The notes beneath the pieces are model-generated. The model worked only from the letters and a program-made list of their open reading frames with translations, was not told the origin of the DNA and searched no databases. From assembly GCA_963674735.2 (NCBI GenBank), contig CAXXQS010000001.1:1856001-1920000 (forward strand): 64,000 nt of DNA, read 5' to 3'. Shown here piece by piece: positions 2,568 through 20,436 of the stretch. Within the stretch, counting starts at the first letter, position 1. Every line of letters starts with the position of its first letter. Made by a program: the position numbers and the translations under genes. The stretch is from Myxococcota bacterium. GTDB taxonomy: Bacteria; Myxococcota_A; SURF-8.

Positions 2568-2620
2568 GCCGGGTGTTAATCATTCCCAAAAAAAGTCTAA
2601 TGATTACAAAGCCATTAAAG

Positions 2621-2650
2621 TTGACGCCCATCCAGGGGCTCTGCTATGAT
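2621..2650 (+). promoter_or_regulatory. Sigma70-type promoter for the ATPase-AsmA-DUF1318-CHAT operon
   Basis: TTGACG-18 bp-TATGAT with extended TGn -10. Confidence 0.55.
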
Positions 2651-2717
2651 GCCTCCACACTCTCACCATTGGTGAGTAAAGACTAAAACAGAAACGCAAG
2701 GAAGGGAAAACCGCACC

Positions 2718-4565
2718 ATGCAGCGGATTGATAGGATCGGTGTTTTTGCCTTTGTTGCTTGCTGGATTCTCTTGATCCTGATTTCACTAGGCGAGCCGAA
2801 CACAGCACATGCTCAAAGCCAAGACGAAATGGATCTGCTCCAGCAGTTGCAGCCCTACTCGGCCGACGAACTGGATACGCTTCGCTTCCTCTATGAATCG
2901 CTTACACCCGAACAGCTTGAAGCGAAAAAACAGGAGTTGGCCCGTCGTCAACTCGAATTGAATCAACAGCTCAATCATCCGCGAAATCAACAGGAAAATC
3001 GGCGTAAAGCTTTGCAAATCGGCATCCGCCGGATTCATCAGGAACAGGATGCTCTCAACAACCTCGGTAGCCCCAAAATCAATGTGGAACATCTTCTCGA
3101 CCAATACCGTGACTATCTGTTGGTCGGCGGTGGGGCGTTGGTGATGTTGATCTTTTTCGGCTTGCTATCGCTGAGACGCAAACCCGTAGCAACAGTCGAA
3201 ACGCCCGGCCATTCAAACGCAGAATCGAATTCAATTCCCGGTGACTCTGATAGTGGAGAAGGCATCCGAGCCGTGGATGCTGTTTCACCGATTGTCATCG
3301 AGGAATCAAGTTCTGCTCCGAAGCCGGTCTCCGGTATCGCCATTCCGCTTCAGGATTTGCAGTCACATATCGACAATCTCCTGCTTGAGCACCCCAATTC
3401 CTACAACAGCCTGGTCGATCTTCTTTTCCAACAAGCCATCTTCTGGCATTCCAGCGACATCCATATGCAACTATCGGGTGGCTGGTTCGAAGTTAAATTC
3501 CGCATCGATGGCAAACTTTACGACGCTTGCGTACTCGACAAATACCGAGAACGCGAAATCATCAACATCATCAAGGTGATGACCAAGCTGAAAACGTACG
3601 AGCAACGCGCCTCGCAAGAAGGTCGCCTGGAATACGAAATCGAAGGCCGCTGGTATGACTTCAGGGTATCGGTGGTGCCGATCATGAACACCGAAAAGGT
3701 GGTCATCCGTATATTCGGGGATGAAGAAATCACCTATGATATCGACCGGCTGGGCCTCTCGATCGATACAACCGAGAAGTTGAAAACCCTTCTGAATCGC
3801 CGTACCGGCCTGCTGCTGCTGGTCGGGCCCTCCGGTTCCGGCAAAACGACCACGATTTACAGCTCCTTGAATTATGTCAATAAGATCACCGGGGGCGTAA
3901 GCATCATCAGCCTGGAAGATCCGGTTGAACATATTCTGCCGGGCGTCACCCAGGTACAGATCAATCCGGATAAAAATCTGACATTCGAGTCAGGATTCGC
4001 CAACTTGCTGCGTCAGGATCCGGAAGTCCTGATGATTGGCGAGATCCGCGAAACCAACGTCGCGAAACTGGCCATTCAGGCAACGCAGACCGGTCACCTG
4101 GTTATCAGCACCGTTCACAGCCCGACAACCCTCGGCGCAGTCGACCGGATGATGAATCTCGGGGTGGACAGCTACAGCCTGCACAGCCTACTGGTGGGCG
4201 TCTTGTCACAACGACTGGTTCGCAGCGTGTGTGTTCACTGCCTGCAACCCTACGATCCCGACCCGGAACTGGTTAAAAAGGCCATCGCCATCACCGGTTT
4301 GCGTGATATGGAATGGCGCCATGGCGTCGGTTGTGAACAGTGCCTTGGACGCGGTTTCCACGGGCGAATCGTTTTAGATGAACTGCTCGTTTTTTCCAAC
4401 AAAGAACGCGACGCCCTCATGACCATGGAAAACCGGGCCGAACGGCGAAATTTCATGATGGAACGCATCAACCACAGCTTGTGGGCAGACGGTATCGCCA
4501 AAGCGGCGGCCGGATTGACAACACTCGAAGAAGTGTTCACCGTGGTTGACGATAACACCATTTAA
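2718..4565 (+). CDS. GspE/PilB-family secretion ATPase with N-terminal signal peptide, coiled coil and TM helix
   Basis: SDIH, Walker A GPSGSGKTT, Asp box LEDPVE, Walker B LRQDPEVLMIGEIRE, His box TGHLVISTVH, CxxC..CxxC, C-terminal GLTTLEEV; hydrophobic segments at aa ~8-24 and ~133-152. Confidence 0.9.
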   Translation: MQRIDRIGVFAFVACWILLILISLGEPNTAHAQSQDEMDLLQQLQPYSADELDTLRFLYESLTPEQLEAKKQELARRQLELNQQLNHPRNQQENRRKALQIGIRRIHQEQDALNNLGSPKINVEHLLDQYRDYLLVGGGALVMLIFFGLLSLRRKPVATVETPGHSNAESNSIPGDSDSGEGIRAVDAVSPIVIEESSSAPKPVSGIAIPLQDLQSHIDNLLLEHPNSYNSLVDLLFQQAIFWHSSDIHMQLSGGWFEVKFRIDGKLYDACVLDKYREREIINIIKVMTKLKTYEQRASQEGRLEYEIEGRWYDFRVSVVPIMNTEKVVIRIFGDEEITYDIDRLGLSIDTTEKLKTLLNRRTGLLLLVGPSGSGKTTTIYSSLNYVNKITGGVSIISLEDPVEHILPGVTQVQINPDKNLTFESGFANLLRQDPEVLMIGEIRETNVAKLAIQATQTGHLVISTVHSPTTLGAVDRMMNLGVDSYSLHSLLVGVLSQRLVRSVCVHCLQPYDPDPELVKKAIAITGLRDMEWRHGVGCEQCLGRGFHGRIVLDELLVFSNKERDALMTMENRAERRNFMMERINHSLWADGIAKAAAGLTTLEEVFTVVDDNTI

Positions 4566-4621
4566 ACGGCAATAGGAACCGGATGCCGTCCTTTCGGCGG
4601 CAGAGACCGGAGGAGAGTCCC

Positions 4622-7600
4622 GTGACCGATTCCAACGACAATACCCAACCGACTCCGGAATCCAATGTGACCCCATCGTCCGATTTCAAAAGATCGTGGC
4701 CACGTCGTATTCTGAGCGTTCTCTTGCGATTTTTAAAGTGGACCACCATCCTGGTATGTCTTCTGCTCGTTCTTGTCGTCCTGCTACTCGCGTTTTTCCC
4801 GGCCAATTGGGTAAAGGAACCCGCCCTCGATCAAGTGCGCGCCCTGCTCAACCAGGATATCGAGGTTGACGATATCGGATTTTCGGCTTTTTCCGGTCTG
4901 CACTTGCGTTCTGTCCGACTCGGCCCCCCAAAAGGTTACACCAAGGATGTTTTCACCCTGAAGGAGTTGCGGCTCGATTACAGTCTGTGGAGCCTTTTGG
5001 GTGGGGAATTCGTCATTAACGAAGTTTTGATCGATTCGCCGCGCGCCCAAATCGAAACCATCGACGGCAAAATGAACGTTCAGGCCATGCTCGACAACAT
5101 GGCAACCAAAGAAACACCGAAGGAGGAACTCGAGCCCGAACCCGAACCGGAAATCGAGGAACCGGGCGAACCCTCCGATTTCAAAGTGATTCTCAGACGC
5201 TTCGCTCTGCAAAATCTCACGGCTTGGGTGGACGATGGCAATCATGTCATCGACTTCGACCATCTGGATGTCGAAATATCCGGCTTTTATAGCCAGATAG
5301 ACAGCCATTTCGACGTACACGTCGGCATCCAGGGGCAAGAACCGGAAACGGCCAACTTATTGTTCTCACAAAAAGATCCCCTCCCCGTCGAAGCGGAAAT
5401 TCTGTTAGCGTTGGGGATCGATATCGCCGCCGACCAAGTCATCACACCCAAATCCACAGTGGACGTGAATCTGCGCGTGGCCACCCAAAAACTCGAAACC
5501 CAATGGCCACTCGATCCGGTGGATCTAAAAGTGGCGCTCAAAGCCACTGCCGACTTACCGGAAGACACCGCGCAAGTGGAGTCTCTCAACATTCATTTCA
5601 ACGATACCCTGCTACTCGATCTACAGGCCGGACTTGTCGGTTTGATGGAGCAAAAGCAGGTGGCGCTGCTACTTAAAAAACTCGATCTACCGCTCGATTT
5701 GTTCGCCCCTTATGCCAAAGCCTTTGTCAAAGATGTGGACTTCGGAGGCCATATACGAATCGAAAACCTGGATGTCAAAGGCGATGTCCCCAAGCTGTTG
5801 GCCCAAGGCCTGCCGGATCTGAACGGGGTTCTGCTTATCGACGAAGTTTGGGCCGACTATGGCCCGGCCAATGCAAAGTTGAACGGTCTCAACCTCAAAC
5901 TCGATCTACTGACCCGACCCGTGGAAAACGCCAATGGTCTTGAAGAACCGGCACTTTATGCCGGGGGATGGCTCACGCTGAAATCAGCGCGTGTACCGCA
6001 GGCGACGATCCGAAATCTGAGGCTGGATCTCGACACCCGTGCCGATGGTCTCGCTATCGAACAAGCCTTGGCCAAAATCAAGTTGGCGATTCCGACTATT
6101 GAAGTCGACGATCCCGGTATCGGACACGCCGTTCTCGCGTTTTCCACCGACATCGAAGCGGGGGGCAACCTGGCGGATGGACAGTTTACGGTCGATCATG
6201 TGAACGTCAACATCTCCGACACGATCAAGCTGCACGTGGACGCCGATGCCCAATTAAACATGGAAACTCAGGCCATCGATCACTATCGGACCGCCATCCA
6301 ATTGCAACCGATCGACTTCAAAAAAGCGCTGGCGCTTGTCCCCAGCGGTATTCGCAAACAGATACCCAAAATGAAACTCGCTGGTTCGCTTGGACTGGAC
6401 GTCAAATCCGAGGGGCGCATCCCGGCTCAATTTTCGGATCCCATGGCTCTACCGGTCACGCTGGACGCACTGATCACGTTGGCCGACATCAACCTCGACT
6501 ATCCCGACCAGCAACTCACCATCCACAATTTCGGCGGCACACTGCAAGCGAAAGGAAAGCCTGCGGATATGGCGGTCACCGGATTGTGGACACTCGCGCA
6601 ATTGGACAAGCTCGATCAGTTTGCCTCGCTTTCCGGCTTGCGCATCCCACTCGACATCCGTGTGACTCCCGAACAAGCCAAATTGGATATGGGCGTCCAA
6701 ATCGACCAATTGAAGAAGGAAGATCAAGCCGCCAAGATGAACGATCTGGCGCTATCCGTCAGCGCGACAGCAAACGGCAAACTGCTCAAACAGACATTCG
6801 ATAAGCTGGCGGGACAAATCGATCTGACTATCGCGGATATCATCTACGCCAAGGAAGTCACAACTAAAATCCAGGATGAACACATCCGAGTTCGATTCGA
6901 TTACCTGCAAAACCGCAAGACCGTTTCGTTATCCCTCAACCTCGGATTCGAGCAGTTAGAAGCCCCTGAACAGCAGGTTCGCTTGGATGGCTTCGATTTC
7001 ACCATCGATACCGAAGTGCAAGGAGTCGATATTCCTCTGGTTCCCAACCCCGACCAACATGCGGAACTCGTCTGGGTCACGCTGGCCATGGATCTGGCGG
7101 CAATCCACAAAAGCGATATTTTCAAAGAACCACTGACCGGTACCAATTTGCGCTCCAAACTGACCTTGCACGACATGCGCGATGCCGATCTTGAAACTTT
7201 CGCCTTCGCGATACCCACACTTGGCGTTCGGGTCGATATGAGCGGTAAGGTTTGGGGCATTCTTGACAAAAAGCTCCAACCCCCCGATTTTAAGACAAAT
7301 TTCCCGGAATTCGACGTGCAGTTGTTTGCCGGGCTGGATATCTCACCCAAGCGCCGCCTGATCGAAGGAATCGAAGCACAAGGTCTCGCAGGGATTCGCG
7401 CCCGCGCACGTTCCCTACCCGACAACTTCGCCCGCCTGGAAGGCTTCATCGTCGGGGAAAATTTCAGTTTGTGGCAAACATCCAAAGAAGAGCGCGAAAT
7501 CGACGATCCCGATCGAAAAGGAAAAACCATCAAAATTCCGGTGGAATCCCGCCTGCATCTCGATGACTTCGATGCCGACGTCCCGTTGATTCAGATCGTC

Positions 7601-8416
7601 AACCTCGAAACCTTGCTCCCGGTCGAAGCCAAGGGAAACATTTTCGAGGAATCCTCCCGCAACGTGCTTTACGACACCATGCGCACCTACTTAAAACAAC
7701 AGTCGAACTTCCATATAGAAGGTATTACTTTCACACAGAAAATCGACCAAACGAAACGCAAGGTTGAAATCGACGAAATAGCGATGGATATGCTTTATAC
7801 CGATAACACCTTCGCCATCAACCGCCTCTATGTGGATCTGCTGGGAGGTGGCATCTCAGGGTCGCTGCAAGCGCAGATCACGGCCATGCCACCGGCTCCA
7901 TTCGACATGCGTCTGCATTTCGAAAACCAGATCACCGGCGTCAATCTGGCCCGGTTGACCCAAAACGACCCATCCAAAGTAAGCGCCGAAACCGAATTGT
8001 CTTCCCTGGTCAATCTCGATTTCGGTTTACGCGACCTTTACGTGGACGGCCGTATCGATATTACCCGGCTCTCCCTGGCCCAGTTGGACAAAGTTCTGGC
8101 TTTTCTCGATCCAGCCGGAAAAGATCCGAGCGTGCAGCAAAACCGGGCTTTGATCAACAGCTGGTATGTCGACATGATCAACCCGCAGGTCAAGTTGGTC
8201 TCGATGTGGGTGAAGTACGGCAACTTGAATATGGATATTATCATGGACGCCTGGTTCTTCGTTGGCGACATCCTGAACAATACGCTTGAGAAAAGCCGTG
8301 TGCGCCGCCTCAACATCATTCCAATTTTGAAAGCTTTCATCCCAACAGCCGAAACAGACCCGGATTCGACAACCGAAATCGCTCAGTCGGGCTCCGGCGC
8401 GGGCGTGACCCCATAA
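4622..8416 (+). CDS. AsmA-like / YdbH-like bridge-type envelope protein
   Basis: Single N-terminal TM anchor followed by an AsmA-type start (LRLDYSLWSLLGGEFVINEVLIDSP) and ~1200 aa of amphipathic beta strands; adjacent DUF1318 gene. GTG 4622 has a GGAGGAG SD (track start 4583 is in the same frame). Confidence 0.75.
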   Translation: MTDSNDNTQPTPESNVTPSSDFKRSWPRRILSVLLRFLKWTTILVCLLLVLVVLLLAFFPANWVKEPALDQVRALLNQDIEVDDIGFSAFSGLHLRSVRLGPPKGYTKDVFTLKELRLDYSLWSLLGGEFVINEVLIDSPRAQIETIDGKMNVQAMLDNMATKETPKEELEPEPEPEIEEPGEPSDFKVILRRFALQNLTAWVDDGNHVIDFDHLDVEISGFYSQIDSHFDVHVGIQGQEPETANLLFSQKDPLPVEAEILLALGIDIAADQVITPKSTVDVNLRVATQKLETQWPLDPVDLKVALKATADLPEDTAQVESLNIHFNDTLLLDLQAGLVGLMEQKQVALLLKKLDLPLDLFAPYAKAFVKDVDFGGHIRIENLDVKGDVPKLLAQGLPDLNGVLLIDEVWADYGPANAKLNGLNLKLDLLTRPVENANGLEEPALYAGGWLTLKSARVPQATIRNLRLDLDTRADGLAIEQALAKIKLAIPTIEVDDPGIGHAVLAFSTDIEAGGNLADGQFTVDHVNVNISDTIKLHVDADAQLNMETQAIDHYRTAIQLQPIDFKKALALVPSGIRKQIPKMKLAGSLGLDVKSEGRIPAQFSDPMALPVTLDALITLADINLDYPDQQLTIHNFGGTLQAKGKPADMAVTGLWTLAQLDKLDQFASLSGLRIPLDIRVTPEQAKLDMGVQIDQLKKEDQAAKMNDLALSVSATANGKLLKQTFDKLAGQIDLTIADIIYAKEVTTKIQDEHIRVRFDYLQNRKTVSLSLNLGFEQLEAPEQQVRLDGFDFTIDTEVQGVDIPLVPNPDQHAELVWVTLAMDLAAIHKSDIFKEPLTGTNLRSKLTLHDMRDADLETFAFAIPTLGVRVDMSGKVWGILDKKLQPPDFKTNFPEFDVQLFAGLDISPKRRLIEGIEAQGLAGIRARARSLPDNFARLEGFIVGENFSLWQTSKEEREIDDPDRKGKTIKIPVESRLHLDDFDADVPLIQIVNLETLLPVEAKGNIFEESSRNVLYDTMRTYLKQQSNFHIEGITFTQKIDQTKRKVEIDEIAMDMLYTDNTFAINRLYVDLLGGGISGSLQAQITAMPPAPFDMRLHFENQITGVNLARLTQNDPSKVSAETELSSLVNLDFGLRDLYVDGRIDITRLSLAQLDKVLAFLDPAGKDPSVQQNRALINSWYVDMINPQVKLVSMWVKYGNLNMDIIMDAWFFVGDILNNTLEKSRVRRLNIIPILKAFIPTAETDPDSTTEIAQSGSGAGVTP

Positions 8417-8430
8417 ATGGAGGAAAAAGC

Positions 8431-9000
8431 ATGAGCTTGCAGCGGATGACTGTCGTCTTTGTTATCACGGCCATCACCTTGGCCACGTCTGGCTGTATCA
8501 GCCTGAAGATGGTATCGGTCGACGAAATGACCCAACTAGAAAACCAGATCCTGGGATCGTTCGACGAACTGCAGAAAGACATGGTCATGATGGCCTCGGT
8601 GCGCGGGGAAGCCCATGAAAAAGGGAAATTGCCGCCGGCCAAACGAGAAGCATTGATGGCCATGATGAATCGTCAGTTCAACCTGGACGACATCGACGAT
8701 CTCAAAGCTCGCGGAATAGCCGGTGAAGGACGAGACGGCATGCTGGCCTATTTCGATACCGAGCGAACACGAAACGATCCGCAATTCACGCAGCAAGCCA
8801 AGCAGTTGATCAAGCAGGAAAACCAAGATCGGATGATTATTTTGCAACGGGTAATCAATATCAACCCCAACCTGTCCAAGAAAGATCTCCCCGATCTCCA
8901 ACGCATGCTTTACAAGCTGAACGTGGAAAACAGCGCACCCGAAACAAAGATCCAGGACGCGGACGGCAACTGGAGCATCAAACCCCAACCCGTCGAATAA
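8431..9000 (+). CDS. YnbE/YdbL (DUF1318)-like lipoprotein
   Basis: TSGC lipobox, T-x-LENQILG, LKARGIAGEGRDGML, ENQDR and IQDADGNW motifs typical of DUF1318; GGAGG SD. Confidence 0.75.
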   Translation: MSLQRMTVVFVITAITLATSGCISLKMVSVDEMTQLENQILGSFDELQKDMVMMASVRGEAHEKGKLPPAKREALMAMMNRQFNLDDIDDLKARGIAGEGRDGMLAYFDTERTRNDPQFTQQAKQLIKQENQDRMIILQRVININPNLSKKDLPDLQRMLYKLNVENSAPETKIQDADGNWSIKPQPVE

Positions 9001-9009
9001 GGCTTCCCG

Positions 9010-12000
9010 ATGCTTAATTCAAAATACGGATCTGTCTTTCGTCCGGCACTTACCACCTTGCTTCTAACCATCCTGTGCATAAGTTGCAGTGGGAAAGGCG
9101 GAAGTTGGTTCGGTCCCGATACCGTTCTCGACGATTTCACGCTGAAACCGTTCGAAACCGAAATGGGTCACCCCGTGGAACTGACCCGCTTCACCACCGA
9201 CGAAATGGGCGGGCATCTCAGTCCGGACGGACTGTTTCTTGTATACACCAGCAATCAAAAAGGAAATCTGGACATCTGGCTGAAAGACCTCACGACCGGT
9301 ATTCCCGAACAACTAACCGAACATGTGGCCGTCGATACACAACCGACGTTCAGCCCGGACGGCGAAAGTATTGCTTTCATTTCCATGCGTGACGACGTAA
9401 AGGGCGATCTCTACCTGATGGAAATCGGCGACGACCCGATAGCACTTACCGACCGCCAGACCGCCGACGCTTATCCCGTCTTTCACCCGGATGGCGAAAG
9501 CATCATCTTGGCATCCGGGCCGGAAGGTAAAACCCGCATTGTCCAGTTGTTCCTGGACCCGGAAGATCCCGCCAAGCGCATCCGCACTCTAACCGATCCA
9601 GGCGCGACCCAGCCCGCCGTGAGTCCGGATGGAAAGTACCTGGCCTACATCCTGCGCGGGAAAGATCGTATCAACCGGCTCGTCATCCAGCGTTTGTGGG
9701 ATAAACGCAAGCGGATCGTGACCCCGTCAGGCTATCACTGCGGTTTCCCAAGCTTTTCACCCGACGGAAAAAACCTGTATTTCGTCCAGTTCTACTACGC
9801 ACACCCCGACCAGCCGCTCTCGGGCAGCGAAAACGGCGTGATTTTCAGTATTCCTCTCAAGGAAGCCCTGCACGCCTCCGGCGACCGCCTGGTCACCCAA
9901 ACTCATCAAGTCAGTTCGGGGTGTCATACCCATCTATTTCTACAAGCGCATCCCTCGGGTTTGCTCTATACCACTGAAGAAAACGGTAACTTAGATATCT
10001 GGATGGAGTCGTTTGACGGCCGCATCCCGGAATTCGAAACTCCTGAGAAACAACTCGCGTTCGCCTTGGAACTGGAAAATGACTACGACCGCCTGCTCGC
10101 CTTCGAACGACTCAAGCGCTTCCCCGATTCGCTGGAGTATCGGCAAGCCCTTTATAAAAGCGCACAGTTGGAAAACAGGCGAGGTTGGTATTTCAAGCAA
10201 AAACATCACCTGCAAACTTTGCTCGATTTGCCGGATTCCTCGTCCGTCTGGCAAGGTCTCGCCGACGTCGATATGGCGGTGTGGGAAGCCGAAAAGACCC
10301 AAGGTCTGGCCGTTGAAACCGGTATCCGGCTGTCACCTGAAACGGTTCGCACCGCGCTTGAAAAACTGGAGCAACTAGCCGTAGCCGAACAAGCAAACGA
10401 AGGTCGAGTATCCGCCTATATAGCCTTGCGTCGTGGCGACATGCTGCGCCTGATCGATCGCAAACTGGAAGCCATGGCGGCCTATGAACGCGTGCTGCAA
10501 GGATTCCCGCGCCAGCGTGAAGAAGGGGTCCAGGCCAAAATCCGGTTGGGAGAAGTTCTCAGTCGCTTGGAAACGCACGATCTGCAGGTTGGTTACTACC
10601 TCACGGTTTTCGAAAAGTACCCCGAGTTCGAAAAATGGCAACGGCAGACGATCGAAAACATCGTCGACGAACTTCGGCGCGACCTCAAGCGCCAACCCAC
10701 CATCGAAAACCTGCTGAATCCACCGGAATTCGGTGAAAACCGCAAACGGATCCCCGAAGCCCAGCGACAGGAGCAAATTGCAAAAGGGAAATTCCTACTT
10801 GAAGAACACCTGGTAGACCGTCTGCGGCAGGTCATCGACTCGAATCCGGATAAAGCCCTTTTAGGGGCCGTCCTGCAACTGCGCGTCGGCGAAATCTACG
10901 CCAAACACCAACGCCTCGATCTGGCGATCCGCGCCATGAAACGTCTTCTGGATCATTATCCGGATCAACTCGCAGAGGTCACCACCGCCACATTCGCCCT
11001 CGGCCGTCACTCTCTTGAACTTTCCAAGCAGTTGCGCGCCCAGAAGCGCTTCACTGAGGCGGGCAGGTACTACGATGATGCTCTCAGTTATTTCGAGAAT
11101 CTCACGAAAGTTCTTCCGCCCAACCATGAAATGCATCGCCGGGCACAACAACAATTCATCGCCCTGGCTTTGTTGAAAGCCGCTCAGGAAGAGCAGGACG
11201 GCGATATCGAGTTGGCGAAAGCCAGCTACACGCGCATTCTCGCCTTCGACCCCAATGTGGTGCAAGCCCATCGCAAATTGATCGCTTACGGCGTCAAAGA
11301 AGGCCGTTACGACGAATTGGAAGATCGCTACGATGACTTGGTTGATGCCGACGAATCGAGCTTTATCGGGCACTACGGCCTTGGTTATCTCATTACCTTC
11401 CGCGAAGATTTGAGCAAAGGCGACCTAAAAAAAGCCGAGAAAGAACTCCTGTACGCCCTCGGCCTCAATTCACAAAGCCCTTATGTACACATGACGCTCG
11501 GCTGGGTCTACGAAATGCGCGAATTGTATCTGGGCGACTTCACTTCCGGCTGGATCGAAGAAGCCATCGACAGTTACGACAAGGCCTATCGCCTCAACGA
11601 TCGTGGCTCCGATTTGCAAACCGAAGCGGATCTTCTTCTGAATCTGGGAAACGGTTTCTCGCAGTTGGGTAACGCCTGGCATTATGCTCATCGTTTCTAC
11701 ACGGATCGGACTGAGTTGAATGTCGCGTTTCTGAGCGTGAAACGCGAGGCGCTTTACTATCGCAGCTTCGGACGCGCCGCGTTCAATCTAAAGCGCTTTG
11801 AGGAGGCATCCAGTCATTTCGAGCGTTCACTCGAACTGGCTCGCCGCCTCTATTGGGTCGATTTAGAAGCCGAGTTGATTGCCCGGCTGGCTTTGAACTA
11901 TCAGCAACAAGGGGATTACGACACCTCCACCGCCTATTTCGAAAAATCGTTGAAGATCTTCGAATCGGTCAATCAGAAAAATGCACTCGCGGCCCTCAAA

Positions 12001-15000
12001 CGGTCCATCGCCTTGAATTATCTCATGAAAGGCGAACGGAAAACCGCAATGAAAATGTTGGATGAAAGTCTGGAATCGCTGAACCGCCACGGGACACGTT
12101 CTCCGGGCGACTTCATCCGTTTGGCGTTGGCTCCCGATCGCTCTCTAGCCCCACGAGGTTTCGACAAACAACGGGAAGAAGAAGTCAACAATTCCTTGCG
12201 CAATCTGATCCTGGAAGACATGCAGCGGTTTAGCCAGGCGGCAGATCCCCTGCAAAAAAAGCTAGACACGCTGGAAACGATACTCGAAGAAAACGACGGA
12301 ACTTATCCCGATCTGCAGCGAGAGATTTCAACCATCCAGAATCGACAAGCACGTGCCCGCTTCGGCCGTGGAGAATCCATTGAAGCTCTGGATGCCTTCA
12401 AACAAGCCTACCTGCAGCTTGAGCGCATTCAATCCACCGAGCTCGATCCCGAGAGTCCGCAAATCCTGGCCGCCGATACCCCCGAAAAGCTCGACCCGCT
12501 TTTAGCCGAAGCCAGCGATGGTCAGATGATGTACGTCTTCTCGTCGACCGACTTCGAACGGCAGGTCATCAACGCCGTCTCGGCTGCCGAGTTGGTCTTG
12601 CGTCAGATCGCGGAAGAGCGCCCGGCATTGGAGCGCCGCATCCCGGAACTTGTCACACGCCTCGACCGCATGGCGGCTCGTCTGGCAGCAGCCATGCCGG
12701 AAGGTTCCGAGCCGGTAATCCGCCGTGATCTGCTATGGCGCTTTTATAACGCCTTGGGCTTGTTGTCTATGCGCTACGCCGCAAACATCGCAAACGCCCC
12801 CATACTCCCCGGGATGGACGCGGAAACGACGTTCAAACGCATGATGATCGAAGCCGAACACTTCACCAAAGGCTACCATCTGCTGCGACGCATTATAGAA
12901 GAAACCCCCCCGCCGGAAACGCTTGAAGATGCCGAACGGCCCGAGGATGGTGTTCCGTCCTTGATGCGCATCCGCAGCCATGTCCAGGCGCTGGTAAATC
13001 TATCCGAATTCCTTGCCTATTTCGAGGAATCCGGCAACTTGCAAAACCCCGAAACTCGCTCATCCCAAGCTCTCGCACAGGCACTGGACATCTGCCAAAA
13101 ATACGAACTGGGCGAGATTTGCCTAAATGCCCGCATGATCCAGGCGGAACGAAATCGGGACATCAAAGAGGCGGATAGAATCATCAACGCATACCTGCTT
13201 CTACCCGCCGATCTTCTCGGTGATGCCTACAAAAAGGTTTCCGACCCCGCCCGGCGTCGCATTTTTTCAGGCGCGATCGAGTTAGCACTTGAAGCCGATG
13301 ATTACGTCAAAACATGGACTTACGCCGAGCAGGAAAACAGACGCCTGATTCAGGACGAGATCTTCCGAACCCGTTATGGTGCGGCTGCACCCGAGCTTCG
13401 GAAAGCCCTCTCCGACATGGCAGCTATCGCGACATCTTATAGACAGCAGGTGGAGGGGCAATCTTTCTATGAAGCGGATGAAGCACGCCAAATCCGTCTG
13501 AAGAATATCCTTGATTTGAGAAAGGCTTACACCACCGCTTTTTCGAAATTACATGGTCTCTCTCCACGCTTCTATCGCCTCATGACGATCGGTAAGATCG
13601 ACGTTAACGGATCCAAAGACTTGTTGCGCAAAGGCGAATCTATTGTCTCCGTCCTGACGCACCGCGACCGCGTCCATCTGCTGCGGCTCGATTCAGACGG
13701 CGTGTCGGGGCGCCTACTGAAAATGCGACATCATGTCGTGAACCGCCATATCGATCGCTATCTTGATTTCGCCAACCCAGACGCGGATATCCGGAACAAA
13801 GCTCGGACCAAACTTCAGGCTGGACTCGTCAACGAACTATCCGAATTGATCCAGACACAACACCTGCTCTACCTGGATATCGACCGCCTCAATCCACGTC
13901 TTCCCATTCAATCACTGTTGCACCGGGTTGGCCGCAAAAACCTCCAGATCGTCAAGTTCGCCTCCTTGATGGGCTTGCACGAAAGTTATGAAAATCGAAA
14001 TCTTTACAAAAACAGCGGTCTGGTGACACTCGATGTCGTCAACGGCTATCGGGCTTCAGCCGCCCAAACATTGAAAGCCACCGCAAAGGCGACAAAAGGC
14101 TGGGAATTCGCGGTTACTCCGCAATTGACACTCGCCCAGACTATGCCGGTCATTGAGAAAAGCGGCATTATGTTCCTCAACCAACCCCTGGTTTTCGAGG
14201 GACAATCACCCGCCAATATTTGGCTGGATTTCCAGCCGGTGGCACTGGGGATGGGTCATTACTCGTTTGTCGAGAATCTCGATGGTTTGTGGCGTAGCAA
14301 TCTCGTGGTTTTCACCGATATTCGTCATACGAAACGAATCCGGGAAGAACGCCTACTGCTCGAACACTTCATGAATGCCTACCGCGTACCGGGTTTTGCT
14401 GTTTTGGACGCTGAGTTGGCCCCGACTCCCGCCATGGCTCTATGGTTCCAGAACGCGGCCGGTTTATGGCAGAATCATTCACGGGCGGAGGCCCATCATC
14501 TGGCCATATCCAAAACCCAGTTCCAAGCACCTTTCATCCTCGGCGACGGCATCCAGCTTTATGGTTATGCAGGCATGAACGCTGAGCAGGCGATGACCTA
14601 TGCAAAGCAATCCCTGATGCCGACCGTCAAACGGGCCATCGATTTGCAAAAATCGGGTTCCTCGCGTGCCGCCGTCGAACTGTACGAACAGGCTCTGACG
14701 TTCATTGATCACAGTGGCGAGGCGAAGTTCCTCGATAAAGTCCTCGACATGCTGATTTCGCAGTCGGCCAAAATCCAAGATTTCGAACGCGCCATCCGCT
14801 ATCAGAACCGTGTGCTCGAACGTGCGCAGACCGCGTTTGAAGCCGATCCGAAACAGATAGTGGCGCTACTCAACGCCAAAGAGAAACTCGCGGACTATCA
14901 TGCTCAGGCAAAGCAATATCCAATCGCACTGCGTTACAATCAAGAGATTCTCGACACCTTGCTAAAAGCGAGTCGCCGCAGCCTTTGCGCCCCTTATTAC

Positions 15001-17562
15001 AACCAGCGCGGACGTATCAATGAATTTGCCGGCAACTCAAATGAGGCTCTTGCCAACTACGAAACCGCCTATCACATCTATACGGACGCAAAGAATTCCA
15101 AAGGCCGTATCGAACAGGCGACGAATGCCGCTCGGGTGCTGCGCCTGCGTTTGTCGGATTACCGCCGCGCCAAACAATATCTCACCACCGCTCTCAGTTT
15201 GTCGGCCAACGCCGCCCCTCTCAACCGTCTACGCCTGGAACTGGAGCTGGCACGCGTCGAGCAGGCTCAAGGCAATTACCAGACGACCGTCGACCTGACC
15301 CGCAAGCTGGTAAGCGCCACAGAATCGATGAGCGCTCAATTCATGCAACAAGCACGCGGCGTCGCGAAGAATGCCAAACTGAAACCCGATGCCAAACGCG
15401 ATCAACTGATATCACTGAAAAGCCAAATGGATCTGGCAGACAATTTGCGGATCCAAGCTTACCTCGATTGGGTCAACACCCTCTGGCTGCAGGGCGATTA
15501 CGCTCAGGCGTTGTCTTTGCAAAAAGAAGGCTCCGATCTGGCAATCAAAAAGAAAAACCGCCGTTTCCTCATCATGTTCAACAATGTAAAAGGGCTCATC
15601 TACGCCGACCTGGGGAACACCGAGGAAGCCGTTGAAAGTTTGAATGTGTCGCTGGCCATCGCCCGCGAACTCGGCGATCGCGGTGAGCAGGCCAACACAT
15701 ACAACAACCTCGGATCGGCTTACCGCAAGGCAGGCCGTTTTTCCGAAGCTCGCAAGGCGTTTATGGAAGCTATGCGCATCGACCGCAGCATGGCCTTCAA
15801 ACTGGGACTGGCTTACGATTACGCCAACCTCGGCCTCGTACTGGAAAACTTGCAGAAGTTTTCCGAAGCCATCGACAACTTGGAACGCGCCATCGCGATT
15901 TCACGCGAGATCGACAATCCCTTTAATGAAGTGAAATCACTTTTAGCGTTAGGCCGTATTTTCATTGCACGAAAAAAACCGGCGAAAGCAAAGACCTTTC
16001 TTGAAGAGGGCTTGAAAATATCGGAAAAATTGAGTTTGGCCGACTGGGACTGGAAGTTCCATCTCCATTTGGGGCGTCTGGATATGGCTCAAAACGAAAT
16101 CGAATCCGCCCTGGATCACTTCCGTGCAGGTATCGCTACCATCGAACCGCAACCGGCCAGTGTCCGAGCGGCCGCAACCGGCTTGTCGCTTGAAGAAACC
16201 AAGTCCGATCTATACGACGCGGCACTGTCCGCCCTGGCCCGTCTCAACCGTCCGCAGGAAGCATTCCATCTCGCCGAGCGCTACCGTTCCCGCGCCTATC
16301 TCGATCTGGTCGGTGCCGCGAGACCCACATTCGCCAAGGCCGGTGCAGCCGAGTTGCTTTCGCAAGAAATGAATCTGCGGAACGAACTCCGTTCAGCTAC
16401 CAGCGCTCTGCACAAAGCACCCGAATCCGAGAGAGATCGTGCAAAAGCCGACTTGGACACCATGCGCAGCCGCTACGATCAGGTGCTGGTCGATTTGGCG
16501 GCTATCGACCCGGAATTACCCAGCTATGTAACGGTCGACGCCCTTCCCTACTCGCAATTGGCGACCAAGCTCCCTGAAAATGCCGCCGTCCTCAGCTATT
16601 ATCAAACCAACGACCAACTCCTGATCTGGGTCGCCACCCGCACGGACCTTCATTTCGCGACCATACCGATTTCTCGGGAAAACATGGAAAAGAAAGTCGG
16701 TCTGTTCCGTGAAGCCATCGCCCACTTCCACGACACGACTCAAAGCGGAAACGACCTCTACCGAGACGTGATCGATCCCATCATCGAGAAAATCCAGGGA
16801 CAAACAAAGCTGGTGATCGTCCCCCATGGATCGTTGCATTTCATTCCCTTCGCCGCACTTGAACACGAAGATAAATTATTGGCCGATCGGTTTTCCATCC
16901 AATATCTGTCCAGCGTCAACCAATTCCGCTACCTGCGGGAGGGTCCGGCGCTGCCGACCCAAGCACAGCCCTCACGACTCGCCATGGGATGGCCCGTGGA
17001 AGACGGATTTAATGAATTGGGACGCTTGCCGTTTACCCGGCACGAACTGGACGCCTATCGCCAAACCTATCCCCGGGCAACCGTCCTAACCGCCGAAAAA
17101 GCGAGCGAAAAAGCCTTTAAAGCCAAGGCCTCCCAGGCGTCCGTTCTCCATTTGGCGACTCACACGGATTACAACATGATGAACCCACTCGACACTGCGT
17201 TAACCCTGACGGCTGGGGACAAAGAAGATGGTCGGTTGACATTGCACGAGATTCTGGCAATGGGACTCAAAGCCGACCTGGTATCCCTTTCAGCCTGCAA
17301 TACGGCCCTTGGACCCATCACTCAGGGGGATGATATCGTCGGCCTCAATCGGGCTTTCCTCAGCGCAGGGGCCAGGCGTGTTCTCTCCAGCTTATGGCGG
17401 GTTTCCGATCTCGAAACGGCCGTCCTGATGAAACGGTTCTTCCGACACCTGAAAACGCTCCCGCCCGCCGAGGCACTCCAGGCCGCCCAGCACGATGTCC
17501 GCAAACGCTACCCCCATCCGGCTTATTGGGCCGGTTTCAAACTGGAGGGTCGTTTGGATTGA
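9010..17562 (+). CDS. Giant lipoprotein: PD40/TolB-like propeller + TPRs + degenerate CHAT + TPRs + CHAT (caspase-like peptidase)
   Basis: Repeated P-x-FSPDG (PD40) motifs in aa ~60-270; many TPRs; C-terminal CHAT with IVPHGSLHFIPFAAL, HLATH, LSAC, SSLWRVSD, HPAYWAGF; CISC lipobox-like site. Confidence 0.88.
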   Translation: MLNSKYGSVFRPALTTLLLTILCISCSGKGGSWFGPDTVLDDFTLKPFETEMGHPVELTRFTTDEMGGHLSPDGLFLVYTSNQKGNLDIWLKDLTTGIPEQLTEHVAVDTQPTFSPDGESIAFISMRDDVKGDLYLMEIGDDPIALTDRQTADAYPVFHPDGESIILASGPEGKTRIVQLFLDPEDPAKRIRTLTDPGATQPAVSPDGKYLAYILRGKDRINRLVIQRLWDKRKRIVTPSGYHCGFPSFSPDGKNLYFVQFYYAHPDQPLSGSENGVIFSIPLKEALHASGDRLVTQTHQVSSGCHTHLFLQAHPSGLLYTTEENGNLDIWMESFDGRIPEFETPEKQLAFALELENDYDRLLAFERLKRFPDSLEYRQALYKSAQLENRRGWYFKQKHHLQTLLDLPDSSSVWQGLADVDMAVWEAEKTQGLAVETGIRLSPETVRTALEKLEQLAVAEQANEGRVSAYIALRRGDMLRLIDRKLEAMAAYERVLQGFPRQREEGVQAKIRLGEVLSRLETHDLQVGYYLTVFEKYPEFEKWQRQTIENIVDELRRDLKRQPTIENLLNPPEFGENRKRIPEAQRQEQIAKGKFLLEEHLVDRLRQVIDSNPDKALLGAVLQLRVGEIYAKHQRLDLAIRAMKRLLDHYPDQLAEVTTATFALGRHSLELSKQLRAQKRFTEAGRYYDDALSYFENLTKVLPPNHEMHRRAQQQFIALALLKAAQEEQDGDIELAKASYTRILAFDPNVVQAHRKLIAYGVKEGRYDELEDRYDDLVDADESSFIGHYGLGYLITFREDLSKGDLKKAEKELLYALGLNSQSPYVHMTLGWVYEMRELYLGDFTSGWIEEAIDSYDKAYRLNDRGSDLQTEADLLLNLGNGFSQLGNAWHYAHRFYTDRTELNVAFLSVKREALYYRSFGRAAFNLKRFEEASSHFERSLELARRLYWVDLEAELIARLALNYQQQGDYDTSTAYFEKSLKIFESVNQKNALAALKRSIALNYLMKGERKTAMKMLDESLESLNRHGTRSPGDFIRLALAPDRSLAPRGFDKQREEEVNNSLRNLILEDMQRFSQAADPLQKKLDTLETILEENDGTYPDLQREISTIQNRQARARFGRGESIEALDAFKQAYLQLERIQSTELDPESPQILAADTPEKLDPLLAEASDGQMMYVFSSTDFERQVINAVSAAELVLRQIAEERPALERRIPELVTRLDRMAARLAAAMPEGSEPVIRRDLLWRFYNALGLLSMRYAANIANAPILPGMDAETTFKRMMIEAEHFTKGYHLLRRIIEETPPPETLEDAERPEDGVPSLMRIRSHVQALVNLSEFLAYFEESGNLQNPETRSSQALAQALDICQKYELGEICLNARMIQAERNRDIKEADRIINAYLLLPADLLGDAYKKVSDPARRRIFSGAIELALEADDYVKTWTYAEQENRRLIQDEIFRTRYGAAAPELRKALSDMAAIATSYRQQVEGQSFYEADEARQIRLKNILDLRKAYTTAFSKLHGLSPRFYRLMTIGKIDVNGSKDLLRKGESIVSVLTHRDRVHLLRLDSDGVSGRLLKMRHHVVNRHIDRYLDFANPDADIRNKARTKLQAGLVNELSELIQTQHLLYLDIDRLNPRLPIQSLLHRVGRKNLQIVKFASLMGLHESYENRNLYKNSGLVTLDVVNGYRASAAQTLKATAKATKGWEFAVTPQLTLAQTMPVIEKSGIMFLNQPLVFEGQSPANIWLDFQPVALGMGHYSFVENLDGLWRSNLVVFTDIRHTKRIREERLLLEHFMNAYRVPGFAVLDAELAPTPAMALWFQNAAGLWQNHSRAEAHHLAISKTQFQAPFILGDGIQLYGYAGMNAEQAMTYAKQSLMPTVKRAIDLQKSGSSRAAVELYEQALTFIDHSGEAKFLDKVLDMLISQSAKIQDFERAIRYQNRVLERAQTAFEADPKQIVALLNAKEKLADYHAQAKQYPIALRYNQEILDTLLKASRRSLCAPYYNQRGRINEFAGNSNEALANYETAYHIYTDAKNSKGRIEQATNAARVLRLRLSDYRRAKQYLTTALSLSANAAPLNRLRLELELARVEQAQGNYQTTVDLTRKLVSATESMSAQFMQQARGVAKNAKLKPDAKRDQLISLKSQMDLADNLRIQAYLDWVNTLWLQGDYAQALSLQKEGSDLAIKKKNRRFLIMFNNVKGLIYADLGNTEEAVESLNVSLAIARELGDRGEQANTYNNLGSAYRKAGRFSEARKAFMEAMRIDRSMAFKLGLAYDYANLGLVLENLQKFSEAIDNLERAIAISREIDNPFNEVKSLLALGRIFIARKKPAKAKTFLEEGLKISEKLSLADWDWKFHLHLGRLDMAQNEIESALDHFRAGIATIEPQPASVRAAATGLSLEETKSDLYDAALSALARLNRPQEAFHLAERYRSRAYLDLVGAARPTFAKAGAAELLSQEMNLRNELRSATSALHKAPESERDRAKADLDTMRSRYDQVLVDLAAIDPELPSYVTVDALPYSQLATKLPENAAVLSYYQTNDQLLIWVATRTDLHFATIPISRENMEKKVGLFREAIAHFHDTTQSGNDLYRDVIDPIIEKIQGQTKLVIVPHGSLHFIPFAALEHEDKLLADRFSIQYLSSVNQFRYLREGPALPTQAQPSRLAMGWPVEDGFNELGRLPFTRHELDAYRQTYPRATVLTAEKASEKAFKAKASQASVLHLATHTDYNMMNPLDTALTLTAGDKEDGRLTLHEILAMGLKADLVSLSACNTALGPITQGDDIVGLNRAFLSAGARRVLSSLWRVSDLETAVLMKRFFRHLKTLPPAEALQAAQHDVRKRYPHPAYWAGFKLEGRLD

Positions 17563-17583: not shown

Positions 17584-19365
17584 TTAGGATTCGCCGAACT
17601 CGCTCCACCCAAAGCGGCTAACGTATTCGCTCCAGACGCCTTCGCAGCCTTCACGCAGACGGCAAGCTTCGCAAGGTGGACCGTAAGTCTTGTCGCGATC
17701 CACCCGCATTTCCCACAGCAGTCCCGAACGCTGGTCCATGGTTCGGATCGTCGAACGGGTTCCCAAGGCTACGGCGGCATCCTGCATCAGACACGGCGGC
17801 AAGCTATCAACCAGGATGTCCACATCATCCAAACAGCCCTCGGCGCTCAACCGCGCAAAGATTTCCTCCAGGGAAGCCGCCACTTCACTGTAACGGGGCA
17901 CCAGCTGTTGAAAATTCTTCAGGGCATTTCCTTTAGGTTCGATGACCCCCAAACCAATCCAGCTGAAATCGTGCCGAATAAACCAACGAATCAGCGAATC
18001 CAACGTGGGAAGGTTGAGCCGATTGATCACCGCTAAAGCCACGGTTTGGATCGGATAGGCGGTTTTCAGGCGATTCAGGTTGTCGATAGCCTTTTGGACA
18101 TCCCGAAAGCTTCCCTCACGCCGCGTCAAACGGTCATGCATGGCGGCGTCGGGACCATGGATCGAGAGCCGGAATTCACTCACACCGTGCTGAATCAGAC
18201 GTTCGCAGGCGGAATACTCGATCAAGCCCGATCCGTTACTTGTCAACGTGACACGCATCGCTCCATAGCGCTTGGCCAAATCGATGTAATCGATCAGAGC
18301 CGGGCTCGTCGTCGGCTCCCCGTAGGATAGAAAAACCCATTCCGGCCGCCTGGCTGCCAACAGCTTTTCGGCTTCTTTCAGGCTCATCGGCTGCCGTGAA
18401 CCCTGCCCCACTTCGTTGCAGAAAATGCAGTTGTTGTTGCAGTGCGTCCCGATGAGCAAAGCCGTGTCAGTTGTCGTATGACACGAAGATGACTCGCCCT
18501 TCCCTTCCTGCACGACGGGTTCGAGTTCATCCGTCCCGTAACGTTCCACATAACGGGTCCAGAGTCCATCACACAACGAATCCCACCTGCAAAGGGAACA
18601 AACAGATCCTTTTTCTTTCTGATGGTGGGGCTTGAACGGCCGTTTTTTCTGAATATCCGTATACTTATCCGCAAATCGCTCATGCTTTTTCAAAAAGCAT
18701 AAGGGAATCCCGCATACGTCCGGGACATGCATATCGAGCCCCAGTTGCTCGCCCACCAATAACGCTTTCTGCAATTCGTCTTGAATGGAGGAAATACGCG
18801 GAATGACCTTCGGATGATTCCAGGCATCGTGGAACGGATTCACGAAACTGAACACGACTTCCAGCCCCGAACCGAAACGTTCCCGCACAAAGCGGACATA
18901 TTCGACGAGTCGCTTGCGGTTCGCTTGGCAAATCACGCAATTTACGGCAACCGTCACTCCCGCATTCAGCAGGTTTTCAATACCGCGAACCGTCAAATCG
19001 AAACTGCCGGGCGTGCGCGTGATGGCGTCGGACAAACGAGCATTGGGCGCATGCAAGGAAACAAAGACCTGGGTCAACCCCGCTTTGACCAGAGTCTCGA
19101 CAACTCGGGGTTGCGCACAACGCATGGCGTTTGTCTGGAGACTGATCCGCCGCTTCCGGCTGCGGGCAAAGGCCAGAATCTTGAGTAAAACCGGCGACAG
19201 AGTGGGTTCGCCACCGGATATCTCAATGATATCTTCCGGCGCGCTTTCGGCGATCTGTCGAAACAGCTCCCCCTCGTCGAGAACGAAATCCTGCTCGTTT
19301 CTTGGATCGACCCCGCAAAACAGGCAGTGCTGGTTGCATTGTTTGACAATCCGAATCAGGGGCAT
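17584..19365 (-). CDS. Tandem two-domain radical SAM protein
   Basis: Two CxxxCxxC motifs (CNQHCLFC, CNNNCIFC), GGEPT/YGEPT, and two C-terminal Cx2Cx5CxG auxiliary motifs. Confidence 0.9.
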   Translation of the reverse strand: MPLIRIVKQCNQHCLFCGVDPRNEQDFVLDEGELFRQIAESAPEDIIEISGGEPTLSPVLLKILAFARSRKRRISLQTNAMRCAQPRVVETLVKAGLTQVFVSLHAPNARLSDAITRTPGSFDLTVRGIENLLNAGVTVAVNCVICQANRKRLVEYVRFVRERFGSGLEVVFSFVNPFHDAWNHPKVIPRISSIQDELQKALLVGEQLGLDMHVPDVCGIPLCFLKKHERFADKYTDIQKKRPFKPHHQKEKGSVCSLCRWDSLCDGLWTRYVERYGTDELEPVVQEGKGESSSCHTTTDTALLIGTHCNNNCIFCNEVGQGSRQPMSLKEAEKLLAARRPEWVFLSYGEPTTSPALIDYIDLAKRYGAMRVTLTSNGSGLIEYSACERLIQHGVSEFRLSIHGPDAAMHDRLTRREGSFRDVQKAIDNLNRLKTAYPIQTVALAVINRLNLPTLDSLIRWFIRHDFSWIGLGVIEPKGNALKNFQQLVPRYSEVAASLEEIFARLSAEGCLDDVDILVDSLPPCLMQDAAVALGTRSTIRTMDQRSGLLWEMRVDRDKTYGPPCEACRLREGCEGVWSEYVSRFGWSEFGES

Positions 19366-19371
19366 AGGACC

Positions 19372-20436
19372 TCAGCTCTTGAGCGCGGCGAATTCTTCAT
19401 CGCCGTACATTTCGATGTAATTGGTCCACGCGCCTCCGCAGACTCCCCGCCAGGTACATCCTTCACAAGCGGCGACAAAGCTTTTCAACTCGTCCATCTT
19501 CAGATCCTGCCAAACGAAACGCTGCCGGCCGGTGCCGTCGGTCAAATGACTTTCCTGATTCCCGAAAGTCGAAACGAAGGTCCGGCGATCGGTATATTCG
19601 CCGATGTATTGATGGCGGCGCGCCACATCGGCAAAAAAGCTTTCGGGAAAGATGCAATACGGAATTTCGCCGAAGGTGAGACGGATCTTGAATTCGCGCT
19701 CGTTCAAATCCACCAGTTCCATCAACTTCGGCATCGCCTCGCGATAGGTCGACACGATTTCTTCGTTGTTGCGCGCCCGACCTTCGGGACGAATGAAGTT
19801 CAAACGGATGTCGTGAATCCCGAGGTGCTTGAATAAGCGTATGAAACGGTCCATCGTGGGCAGGTTCAAGCGGTTGAGAACCGCATTGAGCGAAATAACC
19901 GCATCCACCACCCCCTCTTTTCGCAGATGGGTGATGTTTCGGATGGCCTGCATTTTCCGAATCAAGGCTCCTTTGTGGTTGCACAAGTAGTCCTCGATTG
20001 CCGGATCTTCCGAATGAAGCGAAATACAGTAGCGATTGATGCCCTTCTGGGCGGCCATTCGCGCAAATTCCATATCGGCCAGGCGGAAACCATTGGTATT
20101 GATCGTGATTTCGCGATAGCCCAGGTCCTGTGCCATCCCCAGAGCCTCTTCGATCCAAGGATACAAAGTCGGCTCTCCGCCCAATAAACCAAGCTGCGTC
20201 ACACCCTTTTCCTTGGCGTAAAACGTCAGTTCTTTCTTTAGTTTATCGAGCTTGACCCACCGTTTCTGATCGATACCCGATTCCCCCTGCATGCAGAACA
20301 GACAGCGGTGATTGCAGGCATGACCGAGATTGATGTCGACTCGCTGGCCTTCACCTTTCCGTGACGCTTCAGGTGCATCGATACCTTCTCGACTAGGTGC
20401 CACTTTTACAACTACTCCTTCAGGCTTTGCTCTCAT
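19372..20436 (-). CDS. Radical SAM protein with C-terminal Cx2Cx5C motif
   Basis: CNHRCLFC, GGEPT, TNG, IPYC, CEGCTWRGVCGG. Confidence 0.9.
   Translation of the reverse strand: MRAKPEGVVVKVAPSREGIDAPEASRKGEGQRVDINLGHACNHRCLFCMQGESGIDQKRWVKLDKLKKELTFYAKEKGVTQLGLLGGEPTLYPWIEEALGMAQDLGYREITINTNGFRLADMEFARMAAQKGINRYCISLHSEDPAIEDYLCNHKGALIRKMQAIRNITHLRKEGVVDAVISLNAVLNRLNLPTMDRFIRLFKHLGIHDIRLNFIRPEGRARNNEEIVSTYREAMPKLMELVDLNEREFKIRLTFGEIPYCIFPESFFADVARRHQYIGEYTDRRTFVSTFGNQESHLTDGTGRQRFVWQDLKMDELKSFVAACEGCTWRGVCGGAWTNYIEMYGDEEFAALKS

Follow-up and report, generated by a model that had tools for sequence, protein, structure and literature searches.

A four-gene cluster at positions 2718–17562 of a 64,000 nt stretch of Myxococcota DNA (the window) raises the question of whether a secretion-type ATPase, an AsmA-like protein, a small lipoprotein and a giant protease could work together as one machine across the cell envelope. 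Comparison with other genomes gives an answer in two parts. The conserved unit is a triad, made up of the AsmA-like gene, the lipoprotein gene and the gene for a giant protein with PD40, TPR and CHAT domains, and the ATPase gene is a rare, lineage-specific addition to this triad. We favour, with a probability of about one in two, the reading that the triad encodes an intermembrane bridge like that of YdbH, YnbE and YdbL, equipped with a protease partner, and that the ATPase was recruited to it in one lineage. The cluster and the site ahead of it are as follows:

2621–2650, + strand: sigma-70-like promoter consensus match 5′ of the ATPase gene (TTGACG-18-TATGAT, TG present, 10/12 matches)
2718–4565, + strand: ATPase gene (615 amino acids (aa), GspE/PilB-type, membrane-anchored)
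4583–8416, + strand: AsmA-like gene (1277 aa)
8431–9000, + strand: DUF1318 lipoprotein gene (189 aa)
9010–17562, + strand: PD40-TPR-CHAT giant gene (2850 aa, probable lipoprotein)

As stated in a preliminary description of this DNA, the four open reading frames (ORFs) are co-directional and separated by short gaps (17, 14 and 9 bp), with no terminator-like site in any of the three gaps, and the predicted promoter is present ahead of the ATPase gene as a consensus match. The sequencing runs listed for positions 2600–9100 were three from one study, none of them registered as RNA. Hydrophobic segments were called by a Kyte-Doolittle scan and by reading of the sequences, which also bore out the presence of envelope-targeting signals on all four products. 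Since the gene order of the block recurs in relatives at 28–60% protein identity without conservation of the flanking genes, the four-gene arrangement exceeds chance.

The conserved gene triad and its products

A profile search of a species-level genome collection found 60 loci for the lipoprotein, with extra queries from distant loci used in sorting them; one peptide pattern served as the seed for all of these loci, so that the counts given here are lower bounds, and related genomes are non-independent samples. All carriers found are uncultured, metagenome-assembled genomes, and the taxon labels of distant loci were taken from record titles. The gene directly upstream of the lipoprotein gene encodes an AsmA-like protein in 21 loci, a beta-ketoacyl synthase in 36 and neither of these in 3. 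The 21 AsmA-context loci carry titles of Myxococcota, Myxococcales or Bradymonadia, of Nitrospira and of Sumerlaeota, and a PD40-TPR-CHAT gene is located directly downstream of the lipoprotein gene in 19 of them; in one of the remaining two, the contig ends 4 bases past the lipoprotein gene, and the other belongs to a genome of the window's own order (G007) in which the giant gene is not nearby. Pfam gave weak matches to AsmA, YhdP or DUF748 at the N-terminus of four distant upstream proteins. The AsmA/DUF1318/PD40-TPR-CHAT triad, which the preliminary description had mentioned from the annotations of other genomes, is thus real, and recurs in Myxococcota-, Nitrospira- and Sumerlaeota-labelled records. 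Neither the triad nor the membrane-anchored ATPase clade was found described in the literature searched, which covered sources other than subscription journals.

The window's own order is represented by ten genomes in the collection (G000 to G009, with G000 being the window's genome), each of which has exactly one lipoprotein orthologue (10/10), and the AsmA-like protein was matched in all nine of the others. Using tblastn on fetched regions, the order of AsmA-like gene, lipoprotein gene and giant gene was found in G001, G003, G004, G005, G006, G008 and G009, while G007 has the AsmA-like and lipoprotein genes adjacent to each other and a CHAT open frame of 2736 aa on a separate contig.

The lipoprotein family has a second conserved context, tied to lipid synthesis, in its beta-ketoacyl synthase neighbours. 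In the 36 loci of this type, which have Nitrospinota-type titles (within L027–L081, for example L064:8684-10570), the lipoprotein gene comes right after a FabF-like beta-ketoacyl synthase gene, with ketoacyl-synthase domains confirmed by Pfam in two of these neighbours, and no AsmA-like or CHAT gene was found near the lipoprotein gene in any of the 36.

The AsmA-like protein of the window consists of a cytoplasmic tail of approximately 55 aa, a single transmembrane segment (residues 56–74) and a long all-beta region, which is predicted to be periplasmic. Pfam recognised AsmA on residues 50–176 (44.4 bits, cut-off 29.8), with DUF748 also matched on the N-terminus, and the profile of the AsmA alignment gave one chance-level match to PDB sequences (E 0.76). 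An AlphaFold2 model of residues 560–1277 (mean pLDDT 83.7) has approximately 35 consecutive long strands without interruption and few C-terminal helices, and this modelled run of strands would be as expected of a repeating beta-groove. Relatives of the protein range from 1165 to 1785 aa. At least three AsmA-superfamily proteins are present in the genome, and because two TamB-family genes are located elsewhere (G000:C1:1038000-1039070 and G000:C2:486057-487097, in open frames of 1359 and 1389 aa), the AsmA-like protein is an additional and possibly specialised paralogue. The cytoplasmic tail was considered as a trait specific to loci with the ATPase and was rejected as such, as tails of 30–55 aa are present in Myxococcota-labelled orthologues both with and without an ATPase.

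The lipoprotein, which is single-copy in the genome, has its lipobox cysteine at Cys22, followed by a short segment (23–31), a helix (32–56) and a YdbL-like (DUF1318) domain at approximately residues 69–184. The DUF1318 match (31.7 bits, cut-off 27) was shared by 40 of 42 relatives, and Cys22 is invariant in all 42 when aligned, as are V30, T34, L36, E37, Q39, L41 and G42 just past it. In the AlphaFold2 model (pLDDT 90), a signal helix, the cysteine, a short linker and a helix precede a helical domain with two small hairpins. The only significant Foldseek match in the PDB was 28oj, the crystal structure of E. coli YdbL (E 4.8e-4), which superposes on the C-terminal half of the lipoprotein with a TM-score of 0.84 (target) and a root-mean-square deviation (rmsd) of 2.3 Å over 96 columns, and YdbL was also the sole match when the lipoprotein profile was searched against PDB sequences (E 0.01). 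The earlier assignment of the DUF1318 protein as YdbL-like is therefore upheld by both fold and profile.

The giant matches Pfam PD40 (TolB-like propeller), many TPR families and, at residues 2578–2847, CHAT (E 1.6e-61, 208.7 bits, cut-off 24), and is the sole CHAT match in the genome. Across 14/14 aligned giants, the columns that hold the catalytic His and Cys show no variation, and with this dyad intact the CHAT Cys-protease assignment of the preliminary description stands. In the window the hydrophobic N-terminus ends in ...CISC-SG, a non-canonical lipobox; the Myxococcota-labelled orthologues have clearer lipoboxes, with the signal region ending in a small residue followed by Cys, and are probable lipoproteins. 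The N-terminal PD40 repeats of this predicted periplasmic protein resemble those of TolB, although the match to the TolB model (97.9 bits) is far under the cut-off of 343 bits and indicates the repeat type only, and there are no adjacent Tol-Pal genes.

A studied precedent for a CHAT protease outside the cytoplasm is the M. xanthus anti-sigma factor DdvA, which according to the available text of PMC11506125 carries a periplasmic TPR-CHAT domain. The giant shares with DdvA and with other TPR-CHAT proteases (Csx29/Craspase, separase) a TPR array followed by CHAT with a His-Cys dyad, and it is likewise predicted to be outside the cytoplasm, as is described for DdvA in that text (PMC11506125). It differs from DdvA in having neither a transmembrane anti-sigma module nor a sigma factor gene, and from this group of proteases as a whole in its N-terminal TolB-like PD40 propeller, in its approximately three times larger size (2850 aa), and in its genetic tie to AsmA-like and YdbL-like genes instead of defence genes.

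The membrane-anchored ATPase

Pfam identified T2SSE on residues 231–607 of the ATPase (E 3.4e-94, 316 bits, cut-off 24.9). This core contains the motifs GPSGSGKTT at 370, LEDPVE at 399, VLMIGEIR at 437, TVHS at 465, CVHC at 505 and CEQC at 539, all of them conserved in 5 orthologues, which we take to be the Walker A motif, Asp box, Walker B motif, His box and tetracysteine motif also present in GspE and PilB. The half of the protein preceding the core starts with a hydrophobic segment at residues 7–25 (signal or first transmembrane segment), continues with a helical region of approximately 105 aa with a conserved L..LN..LN motif, predicted to be periplasmic, and then has a transmembrane segment at 134–152, which a poorly conserved linker of approximately 75 aa separates from the T2SSE core. 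This architecture is common to the 5 aligned orthologues. Residues 1–230 match no Pfam family, so there is no N1/MshEN-type domain, and a protein atlas search with the same residues gave no usable match. In contrast to GspE and PilB, the ATPase thus has two hydrophobic segments around a predicted periplasmic helical domain in place of the N1/MshEN domain, and it scores far under the NCBIfam equivalog cut-offs for GspE (350.1 versus 630.25) and PilB (318.9 versus 675.65).

Among 1.84 billion cluster representatives, six share the ATPase architecture (P0008–P0011, P0025 and P0026), with the layout of two hydrophobic segments kept in 6/6, and the ranks below them are taken by 1000-aa double-ATPase proteins and by PilB/GspE-like proteins of the ordinary kind. 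Fourteen representatives ranking just below the orthologues (P0012–P0024 and P0027) are approximately 1000 aa in length and without hydrophobic segments, contain two or three stretches that HMMER matched to the ATPase query, and have the Walker A pattern twice (9/14) or once (5/14). A contig search seeded with the ATPase alone gave 59 pattern matches, of which 0 were confirmed. Assignment to the ATPase clade rests on this shared architecture together with the separation of bit-scores, as orthologues score 370–652 bits versus approximately 245 bits for paralogues of the same genomes.

The genome holds 8 other T2SSE-family matches. As in the preliminary description, the ATPase gene is not accompanied by the usual partners of such enzymes: no GspF/PilC platform gene is present in the window, no pilin or secretin gene was found among the window ORFs scanned, and the T2SSF matches in the genome (6 domains in 3 genes) all lie elsewhere. 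The surroundings also differ from those of a type II secretion system (T2SS) by having no GspL or pseudopilin gene near the ATPase.

Among the ten genomes of the window's order, six (G000, G001, G003, G004, G006 and G009), which represent two families, have the ATPase, AsmA-like, lipoprotein and CHAT genes in this sequence, with the adjacent ATPase orthologues being 36–53% identical. The genomes found here to hold the ATPase clade all hold the triad as well (7/7). As adjacency is kept across two families, the gap is short and the clade is confined to genomes with the triad, this argues for a functional tie between the ATPase and the triad within that lineage.

The bridge reading and its rivals

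In E. coli, YdbH together with YnbE makes up an intermembrane bridge, according to the text available for PMC11126948 and bioRxiv 10.64898/2026.03.16.712125. YnbE is described in the former as a small outer membrane lipoprotein, with one strand and a C-terminal helix, which extends the YdbH groove (PMC11126948), and both sources, in the parts available, have YdbL binding the YnbE helix (PMC11126948; bioRxiv 10.64898/2026.03.16.712125). The triad is similar in that a gene for an inner membrane-anchored AsmA-family protein is located directly upstream of the coding sequence for a small lipoprotein and for a DUF1318/YdbL domain, and the lipoprotein has the arrangement of lipid anchor, short segment and helix that the accessible text reports for YnbE (PMC11126948). 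The differences are that lipoprotein and YdbL-like domain are fused in one chain, with no match to the YnbE family, and that the giant gene follows and, in one order, an ATPase gene precedes, whereas the E. coli ydbH-ynbE-ydbL operon is without a protease or ATPase gene. As its layout is that of a lipid anchor, short segment and helix followed by a YdbL-like domain, analogy suggests that the roles of YnbE and YdbL may be joined in this one chain.

The favoured reading is then of a bridge in which the AsmA-like protein would be held by one helix in the inner membrane, with its long beta-groove spanning the periplasm, and the lipoprotein would sit at the outer membrane end, where it may do the work of both YnbE and YdbL. 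The giant would be exported, with a lipid anchor in Myxococcota, and serve as a scaffold in the periplasm or on the outer membrane side, and its caspase-like site may cleave a bridge component or client, so that assembly or turnover of the bridge would be under proteolytic control. Judged from the protein families involved, the cargo could be lipid, or the lipid moiety of lipoproteins, and we count the lipid context of the lipoprotein family (36/60 loci directly after a beta-ketoacyl synthase gene) in favour of this reading. In the window's order, the module would have acquired a GspE-like ATPase of the hexameric type as a dedicated component, which is anchored in the inner membrane through its two hydrophobic segments and most likely co-transcribed, and which may act at the inner membrane end of the bridge by loading or extracting cargo or by controlling assembly. 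Given the length and poor conservation of the linker that leads to the motor, a role in tethering or regulation would be likelier than rigid transmission of force. The closest precedent for cooperation between a GspE-type motor and an AsmA-like protein is the T2SS with GspN, as the available text of PMC12802150 describes a GspE-driven system that uses the AsmA-like GspN for lipoprotein transport.

A bolder version of this reading, which we consider unlikely, is that the locus encodes the first AsmA-like bridge with a cytoplasmic motor of its own, in which a hexameric GspE-type ATPase, anchored in the inner membrane and extending into the periplasm, would power or gate lipid or lipoprotein flow through the groove, and the giant periplasmic protease would act on the bridge at its outer membrane end, to assemble, prune or dismantle it. 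The energy source of transport by AsmA-like bridges is, to our knowledge, an open question, and the genetic tie in one lineage between a rare membrane-tethered secretion ATPase and a bridge gene provides a concrete candidate for energy coupling; if true, a motor-driven bridge would readily explain how AsmA-type transport to the outer membrane is energised. The locus also gives an AsmA-like protein a conserved set of partners that includes an exported caspase-like protease, an association that was not found in the literature searched, and it extends the known range of CHAT proteases beyond cytoplasmic defence, to the periplasm in several phyla. The lipid-anchored YdbL-like domain bears on how YdbL-type proteins work. 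Phospholipid delivery to the outer membrane via AsmA-like bridges is described as poorly understood in the available text of bioRxiv 10.64898/2026.03.16.712125 and PMC13119328. Immediate experiments are limited, since the carriers are all uncultured.

Several findings weigh against the bridge reading, starting with the three products of the triad. Pfam coverage of the AsmA-like protein is limited to the N-terminus, and its C-terminal model gave weak or generic beta-sheet matches in Foldseek and VIA-align (ApoB100, LPD-3, LptD and porins, mostly at rmsd ≥8 Å), with no TamB or YhdP entry among the matches listed. At 1277 aa it is YhdP/TamB-sized and not short like YdbH, which has 869 aa in the text available for PMC11126948, and a strand-stacking extender may therefore not be needed. 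The YnbE family (PF13617) was matched by 0/42 lipoproteins at E values up to 1, and by nothing in the genome at E values up to 0.1, so that the YnbE-type lipoprotein of the preliminary description was not recovered; a YnbE-YdbL fusion by homology was rejected at the sequence level for the same lack of matches, and is kept here as an architectural analogy. Anchoring of the giant in the outer membrane, as earlier proposed, agrees with the probable lipoproteins of Myxococcota-labelled records and fails for the Nitrospira- and Sumerlaeota-labelled giants, which have an ordinary signal peptide instead of a lipobox; the giants are thus all exported, with a lipid anchor that is not universal. In addition, the number of promoter-like sites across the region (9) is not above that expected from shuffles (9.8), and the site at 2621–2650 can therefore be read only as a consensus match.

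The remaining adverse findings concern the place of the ATPase, which was distributed as follows over the ten genomes of the order:

G000, G001, G003, G004, G006: ATPase gene adjoins the triad
G009, L019:15252-17061, − strand (= G009:C10:39446-40276 region): ATPase gene adjoins the triad, split over two frames, with 2 TGA stops
G008, L083:8294-10342, − strand: intact ATPase orthologue of the same layout, 682 aa, approximately 0.9 Mb from the triad
G007: no orthologue; the best match, an ordinary GspE, stands next to GspF and GspG genes
G002, G005 (86% and 79% complete): nothing above paralogue background

The copy in G009 is either a pseudogene or the result of an assembly error. The orthologue in G008 is convergent with rpoC, beside rpoBC, and the presence nearby of an IS110-family transposase gene (L083:12011-12964, + strand) suggests that it was moved by rearrangement. 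The best match in G007 was rejected as an orthologue, as it is an ordinary GspE gene followed by those for GspF and GspG. Outside the order, none of the 5 triad-bearing genomes checked had an orthologue (best score 257 bits, at paralogue level). From this absence elsewhere and the unlinked copy in G008 it follows that the triad does not need the ATPase, and that the ATPase can work from a distance. The four-gene linkage of the preliminary description thus holds for the triad (19/21 AsmA-context loci) and, within the window's order, for an adjacent ATPase in 6/10 genomes (one with the two stops), and does not extend to the genomes in which the ATPase is unlinked (1/10) or was not found (3/10), nor to those outside the order (0/5).

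The same distribution would be accommodated if the triad were functional and the ATPase lay outside it, as an orphan membrane-tethered GspE-like enzyme that was inherited next to the triad in one lineage and has a role of its own, for example as a signalling ATPase or as partner of a distant platform protein. We regard this as somewhat unlikely. It would account for the 5/5 genomes outside the order with a triad and no ATPase, for the 18/21 AsmA-context loci with no adjacent ATPase, for the intact orthologue far from the triad in G008, for the lack of an orthologue in G002, G005 and G007 and for the stops in the G009 copy, and the 8 other T2SSE-family matches and 3 platform genes of the genome also fit with it. 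However, an orphan would not be expected to keep its adjacency and orientation over two families at 36–53% identity while the flanks are not conserved, to be separated from the triad in the window by 17 bp without a terminator-like site, or to be present in 7 genomes that all hold the triad, and the ATPase is without an N1/MshEN-type domain for known partners. A distinctly improbable alternative retains the ATPase and assigns the cluster to dedicated lipoprotein export akin to the T2SS with GspN, in which the groove would shield acyl chains, the ATPase would supply the energy for extraction from the inner membrane, and the giant would be cargo instead of regulator, travelling with or without the small lipoprotein to the outer membrane or cell surface. 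Here a secretion-type ATPase of the GspE/PilB type is indeed encoded with an AsmA-like protein and with lipoproteins, as in the T2SS with gspN described in the text available for PMC12802150, both downstream products have a lipobox in Myxococcota-labelled records, and the AsmA-like GspN is needed for T2SS-dependent surface display of lipoproteins, according to the same partial source (PMC12802150). The AsmA-like N-terminus weakly matches the Leptospira GspN model (TIGR04411), but at 29.7 bits, below the cut-off of 50, this reflects the generic AsmA N-terminus only, and the protein is approximately five times the length of that model (280 positions). Export of the giant as lipidated cargo is also at odds with the Nitrospira- and Sumerlaeota-labelled records, which keep the triad with ordinary signal peptides, with the absence of secretin, pseudopilin and platform genes from the window, and with the fact that most triads are without an ATPase.

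The least probable of the readings considered is that of an envelope surveillance or conflict system, where the giant, through its PD40-TPR part, would detect a signal in the periplasm, for instance envelope damage or an invading protein, and CHAT would cleave a target in the way proposed for DdvA, with the AsmA-like protein being either that target or a membrane-perturbing effector. The pairing of a CHAT protease with a TPR sensor is characteristic of conflict systems in prokaryotes, and M. xanthus has a periplasmic one, as far as the available text of PMC11506125 goes, and the intact His/Cys dyad is consistent with such a function. A weak NCBIfam match to Csx29 on the CHAT domain (51 bits, cut-off 300) is a further point in its favour. 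With PADLOC, the only match among the four proteins was that of the giant to a generic TPR model. The giant occurs as a single copy and is found in each of the order's 10 genomes, either adjacent or, in G007, on another contig, which points to vertical housekeeping inheritance and not to a defence island. Moreover, the giant has beside it in the window neither a gene for a sigma or anti-sigma factor nor a nuclease or mobile element, and its partner proteins belong to lipid-bridge families.

Neighbouring genes

The genes flanking the cluster were considered as members of the system and rejected. Upstream flank genes, including an ORF of 573 aa, are kept in only G003 among the 9 loci compared, and the radical-SAM genes found downstream in the window were beside the cluster in 0/9. 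The upstream region contains two long ORFs which overlap on opposite strands (816–2012, + strand; 846–2567, − strand) and have no Pfam family. Both match G003, the 573-aa ORF on the minus strand at 56% and the ORF on the plus strand at 40%, and the minus-strand ORF is the likelier gene of the pair.

Downstream of the cluster, positions 17584–26817 contain four radical-SAM genes, three on the minus and one on the plus strand, with the gene next to the giant being convergent with it, and these are followed by genes for ApbE, for endonuclease V and for an alpha/beta hydrolase that has an EF-hand match. In two Nitrospira-labelled loci (L065:18382-19877 and L069:18338-19800), the giant gene is followed co-directionally by a gene for a bacterial SH3-domain protein and one for an M48 peptidase.

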